64,000 bases of DNA. Source: Escherichia phage ime09. The notes below the pieces were generated by a model. That model did not search any database and was not told where the DNA came from. It saw only the letters and a list, made by a program, of their open reading frames with translations. Position 1 is the stretch's first letter. Each line of letters opens with the position of its first letter. Positions 3,688-5,844 of the stretch are shown piece by piece. The stretch lies in sequence record NC_019503.1; one strand, given 5' to 3'. A program made the translations under genes and the position numbers.

Positions 3688-3712
3688 GAAGAAAGGGGCC
3701 GAAGCCCCTTAT
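3688..3712 (-). terminator. Stem-loop terminator downstream of hoc
   Basis: ggggc-cgaa-gcccc at 3696-3709; on the minus strand it is followed by tttcttcatttt. Confidence 0.6.
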
Positions 3713-3714
3713 GA

Positions 3715-5133
3715 TTATGGATAGGTATAGATGATACCAGTTTCTAAAGCAGTTTTATGAATGATGTATCCATTACGTGATTCTTGAACATCAACTTCTG
3801 GATAGTCTTTCATCATCTTCTGAAGAGTGTAACGATGCAGGTAGTATTTACTATCTGGATCTTCAGTTTTCCAATCTTTACCTTCTTCGGTCATTTTTTG
3901 GATTTCATCCATAACCCACCAACCGCACCAGATATAAGCCGAAGTACGATGTGGAAGAGGATGAACATAAGGCAATTCACCTTCTGGTTCTGGAGCAACT
4001 TTATCAGTTACCTGAACTTGACCTTCTGCTGTGATAGTTTTGCTATCATAATCAGTAGCAGTAACAGTTGCAGTAACTTCAATAGTTTGACTTCCAATAG
4101 ATGATGTATCAACCGTGTATACATTAGTTGACCCTTCTACTGGAGAAGAATCTTTCTTCCATGAATATTCGATTTGTGCTTCTTCTGGAGCATCCGTAAC
4201 ATTAGCAGTAAATGTAGCCGAAGCATCTTGCTGAACGTTAATAGAAGGAGGAGTCAATGTAACCTGTGGATTCATTGTTTTCTTATTAACAGTCAATGAT
4301 ACTTCATTAGAAGTAACTTCCTTTTCATTGTAATTTTCTGCAGTTACTTGAGCTACACACTTAACTGTTTTAGCTCCAACTGTGGTAGGAGTATAGTTAA
4401 ATGTAGTAGTAGTTTCTCCATCGACCAGAGAACCGTCAACATACCACTGATACGTAGCAGACGCTCCTGGTGGCTGTGAAGCCAAGGCAGCAGTAAATTG
4501 AACTGGGGTTCCAATTACCCCGGCAGCAGGATTAGCAGGAGTTACTGCCAAGGTAGTCGTCTGCGTCTTCTTATTAACTGTTAATGATACTTCATTAGAA
4601 GTAACGCTTAGTGTATCATAATCTGCCGCAGTTACTTGAGCTACACACTTGATTTTTTTAACTCCGCTTGTGTCAGGAGTGTAATTGAATGTAGCGTCAG
4701 TTGCTTCGTCTACAGGAGAACCGTCAACGTGCCATTGATACGTAGCGTTTGCACCTGATGGCTGTGAAGCTAAGGCAGCGGTAAATTCAATTGGAGTTCC
4801 AATCACTCCAGCATCAGGGCTACCAGGAGTTACAGCTAAAGTAGTTGTTTGTGTCTTATTTTGAACTGTGATAGTTGTACTAATTTCTGCTGTTTCAGGT
4901 TCAGATTCTGCAACTTGATTGGTTGCAACTACTTTAATAGTCTTTTGACCGGCAGGTCCTTTTAGTACATAACTAAAAGTTGCTGACGTTTCTTCCTGTG
5001 GAGCGTCGTCTACAGTCCAAGCATATGTAATAGGTCCATCTCCAGTTTGACCACTGGGTGTAGCAGTAAACTGCTGAGTCTGATCTATAACTCCAGTAGG
5101 TGTTTTAGGAGTTATATCAACTGTAAAAGCCAT
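3715..5133 (-). CDS. hoc: Highly immunogenic outer capsid protein Hoc, 472 aa with an extra Ig-like domain
   Basis: Repeated Ig-like modules (TLAVTP...YQW.VDGS...KCVAQVTA...EVSLTVNKKT) and position between 24.x and inh; T4 Hoc is 376 aa. Confidence 0.85.
   Translation of the reverse strand: MAFTVDITPKTPTGVIDQTQQFTATPSGQTGDGPITYAWTVDDAPQEETSATFSYVLKGPAGQKTIKVVATNQVAESEPETAEISTTITVQNKTQTTTLAVTPGSPDAGVIGTPIEFTAALASQPSGANATYQWHVDGSPVDEATDATFNYTPDTSGVKKIKCVAQVTAADYDTLSVTSNEVSLTVNKKTQTTTLAVTPANPAAGVIGTPVQFTAALASQPPGASATYQWYVDGSLVDGETTTTFNYTPTTVGAKTVKCVAQVTAENYNEKEVTSNEVSLTVNKKTMNPQVTLTPPSINVQQDASATFTANVTDAPEEAQIEYSWKKDSSPVEGSTNVYTVDTSSIGSQTIEVTATVTATDYDSKTITAEGQVQVTDKVAPEPEGELPYVHPLPHRTSAYIWCGWWVMDEIQKMTEEGKDWKTEDPDSKYYLHRYTLQKMMKDYPEVDVQESRNGYIIHKTALETGIIYTYP
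4291..4860 (-). repeat. Tandem ~285-bp direct repeat inside hoc encoding two near-identical Ig-like domains
   Basis: Protein residues ~92-186 and ~187-281 are highly similar; the underlying DNA blocks at roughly 4291-4575 and 4576-4860 align. Confidence 0.75.
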
Positions 5134-5142
5134 AAGTTATCC

Positions 5143-5823
5143 TTATTTTAATGTTACGAAAGAAGAATTGCGTGTTTCACGAATTAGAACTGATCCGTCA
5201 CGGTTAATGTAGTAAATTAAGCTAAATAAAGTTTGATGTGCCGACGCGTGTTCAAAACTAGTTGGGTGAGATTTCCAATCCGGAGTTTCAGCAATCCACT
5301 GGTAAATCCACCAAGGAACAGTGCAGAATCCTGGATTTTTTCCAATCAGCTGAAGATTCGGACTAAAGTTTTCCGGAAGAGTAAATACAGACGGCTTTTC
5401 AGATTCAATAATCTCAGCTACAGCCTGTTCGAATTTTTCTTCAACAAAAGGAGTATCTTCAATCAAAACATCGGTATTTTCGGGAATTTTATCCATTTCG
5501 ACTACTTCAATTTTAATGTCAGATTTAACCGGAGAATCAATCAGAAGTGCTGCTTCTGGATTGACTTCTTCATCGTCATATTTTAATCCCTCTGCGGCAT
5601 CAGCAGCATTGATTAAGTCTTTAATAGATAACCCATCAGTCTCTGGCATAGGTTCACTAGCGAGCTTCTGGAGGGCTTCTTCAATATCATTAACGATATT
5701 ATCAAAAGATTTATTCTTTTTGACCTTTATACCAAACTGTTCAGCATATTCAGCTAATTTAGCCTTAGCTTCTTTATTATCATCAAGAGCCTTCAGCTCT
5801 GCAATATAATCTTTATCTATCAT
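5143..5823 (-). CDS. inh: Probable Inh (prohead protease inhibitor)
   Basis: 226-aa acidic protein in the position between hoc and uvsW. Confidence 0.6.
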   Translation of the reverse strand: MIDKDYIAELKALDDNKEAKAKLAEYAEQFGIKVKKNKSFDNIVNDIEEALQKLASEPMPETDGLSIKDLINAADAAEGLKYDDEEVNPEAALLIDSPVKSDIKIEVVEMDKIPENTDVLIEDTPFVEEKFEQAVAEIIESEKPSVFTLPENFSPNLQLIGKNPGFCTVPWWIYQWIAETPDWKSHPTSFEHASAHQTLFSLIYYINRDGSVLIRETRNSSFVTLK

Positions 5824-5836
5824 AATATTTCCTCAG

Positions 5837-5844
5837 TATAAATA
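5837..5844 (+). promoter_or_regulatory. Late promoter TATAAATA upstream of uvsW
   Basis: Exact TATAAATA 30 nt upstream of the uvsW ATG. Confidence 0.55.

Follow-up and report, generated by a model that had tools for sequence, protein, structure and literature searches.

The hoc gene in the analysed stretch of Escherichia phage ime09 (64,000 nucleotides, hereafter the window) is very probably a common Tequatrovirus allele, which carries an old array of Ig-like modules whose copy number shifts by unequal homologous recombination. Its product is made up of a capsid-binding domain and four Ig-like domains (Table 1) and is Hoc on every count examined, namely its anchor domain, its Ig string and its genomic position. 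In a phmmer search, the window ORF matches T4 Hoc (PDB 5vf3_Z, 376 aa) at an E-value of 1e-249 through two overlapping stretches, query residues 1-190 and 189-472, the latter aligning to T4 residues 93-376 with a domain E-value of 3e-162. As both of these stretches reuse T4 residues 93-190, the second Ig-like domain (D2) of T4 Hoc is present twice in the window protein. Pfam recovers a PKD match (E 2e-10) along with weaker Ig_3, Ig_2 and I-set matches that lie under their gathering cut-offs. The gene is flanked by inh (5143-5823) on one side and by homologues of 24.3, 24.2 and rnlB on the other, with uvsW nearby, an order that is as in T4 when the ORF map is set against the T4 annotation and the Pfam labels of neighboring genes in related contigs. 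The first 25 kb of the window as a whole are 96-98% identical to many Tequatrovirus genomes. The late promoter TATAAATA was not found on the minus strand just upstream of inh and hoc. The capsid-binding domain has accumulated few substitutions relative to that of T4 (95.7% nucleotide identity, dN 0.009), and the conservation of this anchor suggests that the window Hoc, too, would be dispensable and would sit as a single copy in the middle of every gp23 hexamer.

Table 1. Coordinates of hoc, its domains and the adjoining hairpin in the window
Feature	Position	Strand	Basis or remark
hoc CDS, 472 aa, highly immunogenic outer capsid protein	3715-5133	minus	intact ORF
Ig-like domain D1 (aa 1-92)	4858-5133	minus	in-frame domain split
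D2 module copy 1, alpha type (aa 93-188)	4570-4857	minus	repeat finding and domain split
D2 module copy 2, gamma type (aa 189-284)	4282-4569	minus	repeat finding and domain split
Ig-like domain D3 (aa 285-378)	4000-4281	minus	aligns with T4 Hoc residues 189-282
C-terminal capsid-binding domain (aa 379-472)	3718-3999	minus	aligns with T4 Hoc residues 283-376
Intrinsic-terminator-like hairpin, AAGGGGCTTCGGCCCCTT followed by a T-run	3693-3710	minus	5 nt past the hoc stop codon

The two D2 modules are detected as a single array by Tandem Repeats Finder (4280-4869, period 288, 2.0 copies, 78% matches, score 721), and an independent repeat search pairs 4331-4581 with 4619-4869, again at 78%. The first module (alpha) and the second (gamma) match at 72 of 96 amino acids (75%) and at 224 of 288 nucleotides (78%), with 24 amino-acid replacements between them, while the other pairs of Ig domains in the window Hoc reach only 28-38% identity in protein and 50-54% in DNA. 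Against the 77.8% nucleotide identity observed, codon-shuffled controls stand at 31% +/- 2.6% (maximum 40%). The repeat is real, and no other domain of the protein is as close to alpha or to gamma as these two are to each other. The initial annotation, made from the letters alone, had treated this pair as closer to each other than to the remaining Ig domains and as alignable in DNA, and both statements hold, the former by 75% to 28-38% in protein and the latter by 78% over 288 bp to the 31% of the shuffled controls. It was also right that the window Hoc has 472 residues to the 376 of T4, the extra 96 being the second D2 module, and its span of 4291-4860 is correct to about 10 nt relative to the in-frame 4282-4857. 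Its module size of 95 aa and 285 bp has to be amended to 96 aa and 288 bp, and its description of the modules as near-identical does not stand, for 64 of the 288 nucleotides and 24 of the 96 residues differ.

Every module opens and closes with one peptide (…VTSNEVSLTVNK/KTQTTTLAVTP…), and the repeat unit of 288 bp is a multiple of three. The replacements between alpha and gamma fall at 14 of 41 loop and 10 of 55 strand positions as predicted (Fisher p = 0.10), an enrichment in predicted loops that is suggestive only. Taken with an overall dN/dS of 0.25, this leaning towards loops points to purifying selection on the fold, with the loops being freer to change.

The divergence between the modules also bears on the age of the duplication, which the initial annotation had taken to be recent. 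By the Nei-Gojobori method, alpha and gamma are separated by a dS of 0.66 (bootstrap 95% interval 0.41-1.06) and a dN of 0.166. Orthologous comparisons over the flanks of the array (D1, D3 and the C-terminal domain) in 15 Tequatrovirus hoc genes give dS values whose median is 0.195 and which go no higher than 0.36, with the window and T4 standing at 0.32 (0.23-0.43). The alpha/gamma split exceeds every one of these, the deepest in the sample by a factor of about two; it is not recent. The invariance of the module ends in protein does not alter this estimate: their first 11 and last 12 codons show a dN of 0 and a dS of 0.65, the same as the core, which indicates that they are conserved by purifying selection rather than by recent homogenization or gene conversion. 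Nor is there a sign of recent duplication elsewhere in the family, since no near-identical neighboring modules were seen, all 56 within-protein module pairs being 56-85% identical.

Hoc relatives were drawn from a search of 5.8 billion proteins, and among the best 120 protein clusters their lengths are 376 aa (78), 472 aa (29) and 568 aa (7), with a few odd ones; these length classes step by exactly one module (+0, +96 and +192 aa). GenBank holds 657 phage records matching hoc, and an evenly spaced sample of their ranking, which was used for the span counts, yielded 55 full-length records: 33 with a span of about 1131 bp, 19 with about 1419 bp and 3 with 1704 bp, the longest form being confirmed in two of its three sampled records. 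About a dozen distinct isolates with a 1419-bp hoc, among them ECP2301, U115, JK08, HP3 and pSs-1, show 95.8-97.6% identity, and all three lengths occur among close genome-level relatives (about 97% identity), these being 5-Ig in ESh26 and A6-6, 4-Ig in ECp13 and Killian, and 3-Ig in LF73P3. Deposited 472-aa proteins are annotated as Hoc, as head outer capsid protein or as PKD domain protein. The 472-aa Hoc is an ordinary allele: many Tequatrovirus genomes have been deposited with it, and it is annotated in them. A midpoint-rooted Fitch reconstruction returns the set {2} at the root of the genus, which is weak evidence.

Cutting every protein into 96-aa modules and clustering these resolves three main types: alpha, represented by the first window module; beta, represented by D2 of T4; and gamma, represented by the second window module. 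The commonest architecture is beta alone (72), followed by alpha-beta (23), alpha (6), the alpha-gamma of the window (5), gamma (4) and alpha-beta-gamma (3), with a few rarer combinations. Alpha comes first in 39 of 39 arrays and gamma last in 11 of 11, beta leads only in the single beta-gamma array, and the order alpha, beta, gamma is without exception in 40 arrays. The window alpha is 98-99% identical in nucleotides to module 1 of UGKSEcP1 (98.3%) and to PYPS2T. For the window gamma, module 3 of the 5-Ig alleles and the second module of ECP2301 give 96.5-97.6%, as against 81% for D2 of T4.

The modules are mosaics, and the boundaries between the types are fuzzy. Variants of the last loop such as ENYNEKE and ADYDxLS are found in all three types, and painting 120 proteins by segment uncovers many alpha-to-beta, alpha-to-gamma and beta-to-gamma hybrids together with reversed patches; D2 of T4, for instance, is gamma-like in its residues 12 and 15 and has an alpha-like 'LS' close to its end. 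On account of this intragenic recombination, a single tree of the modules was dropped in favor of clustering and segment painting. A polarity test, which asks whether the 5' part of a hybrid is always of an upstream type, as it should be if single-module hybrids form solely by deletion from ordered arrays, was not used as evidence, the variable loops being too mosaic for a clean count. Hoc proteins from other Tevenvirinae (L005-L018) were considered as an outgroup for rooting the D2 array and set aside, because they are less than 50% identical and their extra domains duplicate a D3-type module, so that they cannot polarize the array. Module gain and loss has occurred independently in another Tevenvirinae lineage, where forms of 282, 377 and 472 aa differ by a D2 module and a duplicated D3-type module.

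Unequal exchange is suggested by alleles that look like the products of deletion from a gene of the window type. The model joins the left-register reading of the window gene, kept up to a single switch, to its right-register reading (+288) beyond it, which amounts to the window allele less 288 bp. Five 3-Ig alleles fit this model, and their switch points, given in module nt, all differ: P0108 (8 mismatches in 1128; switch at nt 24-34), P0088 (13 in 1128; nt 87-108), the isolate teqhad (18 in 1128; nt 207-232), the isolate PYPS2T (25 in 1128; nt 252-275) and P0095 (10 in 1128; nt 291-293). At the protein level, the 376-aa P0095 is the window Hoc minus gamma and the 376-aa P0108 is the window Hoc minus alpha, each with one substitution and identical flanks, and P0088 is an alpha/gamma hybrid. 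The DNA of D1 is identical (0 of 276 mismatches) between the window and PYPS2T, P0095 and P0108, and in P0108, D3 differs at 2 of 282 positions and the C-terminal domain at 0 of 282. The P0108 module itself is alpha-type at its first six informative sites and gamma-type at nearly all later ones. The switch intervals lie within the longer stretches over which alpha and gamma agree exactly (nt 25-34, 88-99, 208-230 and 253-275), though they coincide with such stretches by construction and are not an independent test, and three of the five hybrids come from metagenome or short-read assemblies, under DRR277899, ERZ16268236 and SRR27361832, in which mixed populations may give rise to chimeras. A neighbor-joining tree built on the flanks of 116 proteins requires copy number to have changed at least 22 times, where shuffled labels average 33.5 changes.

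As the window allele cannot descend from all five chimeras, each of them different, repeated deletion of 288 bp from a window-like alpha-gamma gene is the simplest account of them, and on this simplest reading of the alleles, the 4-Ig state would be ancestral relative to the nearest 3-Ig relatives. Alternatively, recombination in register between single-module alleles, one of pure alpha and the other of pure gamma, could have produced the hybrids. The initial annotation had suggested a comparison with hoc from related phages and had set its reading against one in which the four-domain form is both common and ancestral. The latter is largely what the relatives point to: the form is common (19 of 55), and the window type appears parental to at least five 3-Ig alleles, the ancestry thus reaching as far as the nearest 3-Ig relatives.

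The window allele could in turn be either a one-step deletion product of the 5-Ig alleles or their precursor. The best single-crossover fits of the window to the 5-Ig alleles leave 47-79 mismatches in 1416 nt (96.5-94.4% identity), and the best switch point varies with the 5-Ig reference. Within the first 24 nt of the window gamma, six of six informative sites match the beta module of UGKSEcP1, and five of the six differ from its gamma.

Across Tequatrovirus, one to three 288-bp modules lie in tandem at the D2 position, and their order, alpha then beta then gamma, is fixed. T4-type phages recombine intensely, and homologous recombination between modules that are out of register, whether within one genome or between co-infecting phages, would change the number of modules. 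Given that the modules share their end peptides and that the unit is a multiple of three, each exchange is expected to add or remove exactly one folded Ig domain, and it would spare the C-terminal capsid anchor.

How far do other histories account for the same gene? That D2 was duplicated recently, in tandem and in frame, in the lineage of the window phage alone, as first proposed, would explain why the modules lie adjacent and in frame, why they are 75% identical in protein when the other Ig domains stand at 28-38%, and why T4 has a single such module. We nevertheless regard it as highly improbable. The 64 differences in 288 nt correspond to a dS (0.66) that no comparison of orthologous hoc genes within the genus sample reaches, and the synonymous differences bear no sign of hypermutation; alpha and gamma are each nearer to orthologues elsewhere than to the neighboring module; and the arrangement is shared by about a dozen other isolates at 96-98% identity, with about 35% of the sampled records being 4-Ig. 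Less credible still, to the point of being negligible, is that the second module was misassembled or that two hoc alleles from a mixed lysate were merged. Tandem repeats are indeed prone to mis-assembly, but the ORF is intact and in frame, copies that match at 78% are too unlike for an assembler to confuse, and the same 1419-bp gene recurs in independent complete genomes from several laboratories.

A more serious contender separates the age of the modules from that of the array. Here, alpha, beta and gamma would be long-diverged single-D2 variants that were joined fairly recently by out-of-register recombination during co-infection, making the duplication much younger than the module split. 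That single-module alleles of pure alpha and of pure gamma exist, with flanks matching those of the window at 100% in protein, speaks for such a history, as do the pervasive recombination and mosaicism, the 22 or more copy-number changes on the flank tree and the spread of close genome-level relatives of the window over 3-, 4- and 5-Ig forms. Against it, the D1/D2 and D2/D3 junctions share just 13-14 of 30 nt, so that a founding crossover between single-module genes should be rare, and frequent de novo assembly should yield both orders of modules, whereas the order is without exception in 40 arrays, which argues for few founding events followed by spread. Further, the P0108 module, on window-identical flanks, is alpha-type at the synonymous sites of its first 24 nt and gamma-type thereafter, just as a deletion from alpha-gamma would be expected to leave it, and the alpha-gamma alleles have already diverged from each other to a dS of about 0.1. 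On balance, we consider a young array improbable, if less so than a recent duplication, and favor the old array whose copy number shifts by unequal recombination.

In an AlphaFold2 model of the window Hoc, built from 26 homologues, four beta-sandwich Ig domains are predicted with pLDDT mostly above 90, the C-terminal domain being poorly modeled; Foldseek matches this model to the 4-Ig string of Dscam, the D1-D4 string of ICAM-5 and the crystal structure of RB49 Hoc (3shs). The extra 96 residues are predicted to fold as a fourth Ig domain (pLDDT >90), which bears out the in-frame domain duplication proposed in the initial annotation and implies that the fiber should be longer. The fiber of T4 Hoc measures about 18 nm over four domains (Fokine et al. 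2023, PMC10385173), and by this yardstick, the extra Ig domain would add about 4-4.5 nm to that of the window. In the Hoc of phiPNJ-9, the D2 residues S183, L184 and T185 are reported to bind fucose on MUC2 (PMC11853027). The strand containing SLT (NEVSLTVNK) occurs twice in the window Hoc, raising the possibility that the extra module provides a second glycan-binding surface with different loops, and that reach and avidity may differ between the alleles.

Compared with T4 Hoc (PDB 5vf3/8t1x), the window protein occupies the same locus, has a near-identical capsid-binding domain and orthologous D1 and D3, and bears modules that are 80-81% identical in nucleotides to the T4 D2-type module; it differs in having 96 further residues and two D2 modules, alpha and gamma, neither of which is of the single beta type of T4. 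The 472-aa Hoc proteins of ECP2301, U115, JK08, HP3, pSs-1, phiD1 and others have the same four-Ig layout, with 93.5-97.6% nucleotide identity over 1419 bp, and differ from the window by point changes and small mosaic patches such as the 5' 24 nt of gamma in ECP2301, whose hoc was checked to be alpha-gamma. The 568-aa, 5-Ig Hoc proteins (UGKSEcP1, ESh26, YUEEL01 and T4_ev151) have first and last modules orthologous to the window alpha and gamma but an extra beta between them; in UGKSEcP1, ESh26 and T4_ev151, alpha is 91-98% and gamma 96.5-97% identical to the window, and beta 88-90% identical to D2 of T4, all in nucleotides.

Hoc homologues are known with anything from 1 to 10 Ig-like domains in a string, and even close relatives of T4 differ greatly in these domains (PMC10385173). 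The Hoc of Serratia phage Muldoon has 10 Ig domains and its second Hoc 2, that of PG7 has 1 (PMC10385173), and that of phiPNJ-9 is without D3 (PMC11853027). The Hoc proteins of Muldoon, PG7, phiPNJ-9 and RB49 (3shs) resemble the window protein in joining a conserved capsid anchor to a variable Ig string. Comparisons with these are between distant phages, whereas in Tequatrovirus it is near-identical genomes of a single genus that differ in domain number, by the gain or loss of one particular module. The window locus also recalls systems outside this family, in which out-of-register recombination makes chimeric units with the 5' part from the upstream copy and the 3' part from the downstream copy. 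Lepore-type haemoglobin genes and opsin arrays are such unequal-crossover hybrids in tandem paralogue arrays, and tandem BACON-domain repeats are mentioned for crAss-like phages in a passage of PMC9271167 that cites de Jonge et al. 2019. The hoc array differs from such systems in what is repeated, one protein domain within a phage gene as opposed to a whole gene. In full-text searches of the literature, we found no description of the copy-number polymorphism of D2 in Tequatrovirus, that is, of the alpha/beta/gamma array, and an earlier mention is possible.

What the present analysis adds is a population picture of hoc, in which an array of one to three D2 copies of three old types is kept in a fixed order and is repeatedly shortened by unequal crossover. 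For annotators, this means that where near-identical genomes differ in the length of hoc, the difference is genuine and does not come from faulty assembly. Users of Hoc as a display or vaccine scaffold have natural 3-, 4- and 5-Ig fibers at their disposal, which would give different reach, and for studies of phage adherence to mucus, the window Hoc is of interest as a protein in which the SLT strand of the MUC2-binding type is doubled. It is also conceivable, though we think it rather unlikely, that the D2 array acts as a fast-switching 'accordion' of length and avidity, a contingency-like virion locus at which alpha, beta and gamma, set apart mainly by their loops, are maintained by diversifying or balancing selection for different glycan or mucin targets and frequent unequal recombination toggles between 3-, 4- and 5-Ig fibers. 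If this were true, phage lineages would be able to tune their adherence to mucus or cell surfaces by such exchanges.

The capsid-decorating protein Hoc occurs in a more divergent five-Ig form in Escherichia phage CCU7 (see the table): its first D2 module is α-like, while the second and third modules, together with D3, are far more diverged D2-like paralogues. The capsid anchor is still T4-like despite the divergence of these modules. In the Hoc relative P0049 the second module is of a similar kind, showing 56% identity to its own first module. Hence, deeper module types circulate in the genus.

A further five-Ig form, with modules in the order α-β-γ (β being the type of the single T4 D2), is coded by T4_ev151, whose name marks the phage as a T4 derivative. 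The flanks of its hoc show 93-99% identity to those of the window as against only 83-96% to those of T4; hence, this hoc region is not that of T4, and comparison of the flanking sequences suggests a recombinant origin for it.

The terminator scan of the window recovered a strong hairpin 5 nt past the hoc stop codon, before the 24.3 homolog, and a pair within the D2 modules. Both members of the latter lie in the sequence encoding AGVIGTP, in near-equal register in each module, and are probably merely repeated coding sequence. A T4 late-promoter consensus lies ~30 nt 5' of the uvsW start (5874), whereas none was found on the minus strand immediately upstream of inh/hoc.

Features in and around hoc in the window and in related phages
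Feature	Position or handle	Strand	Details
Strong intrinsic-terminator-like hairpin	3693-3710	-	AAGGGGCTTCGGCCCCTT then T-run
Hairpin pair inside hoc coding sequence	4505-4521, 4792-4810	-	terminator scan
T4 late-promoter consensus	5837-5844	+	TATAAATA; inh-uvsW divergent intergenic region
Five-Ig hoc, Escherichia phage CCU7	L023 301-2004		PV806175.1
Five-Ig hoc, Escherichia phage T4_ev151	L030 301-2007		LR597660.1
GenBank records with odd-span or split hoc	H8 (FriedrichMiescher), H14, H26, H50, H53, H55, H64
Hoc loci, other Tevenvirinae lineage	L005, L006		472/471 aa
Hoc loci, other Tevenvirinae lineage	L007, L008, L012		377 aa
Hoc locus, other Tevenvirinae lineage	L011		282 aa

Among the GenBank matches, hoc deviates in several deposited genomes: it either spans 1418, 1420, 1430 or 1132 bp or is split in the annotation into a pair of CDSs ("Hoc part 1 / part 2"). 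Either hoc, a dispensable gene, has become a frameshifted pseudogene in these genomes, or the deviation comes from homopolymer errors in sequencing.

A separate Tevenvirinae lineage, with Hoc proteins ~47-57% identical to that of the window, has a length polymorphism in Hoc like that of the window's own genus. Its four-Ig versions have D3-type modules paired in tandem and its shortest version is without D2; this variation is an independent case of domain gain and loss.
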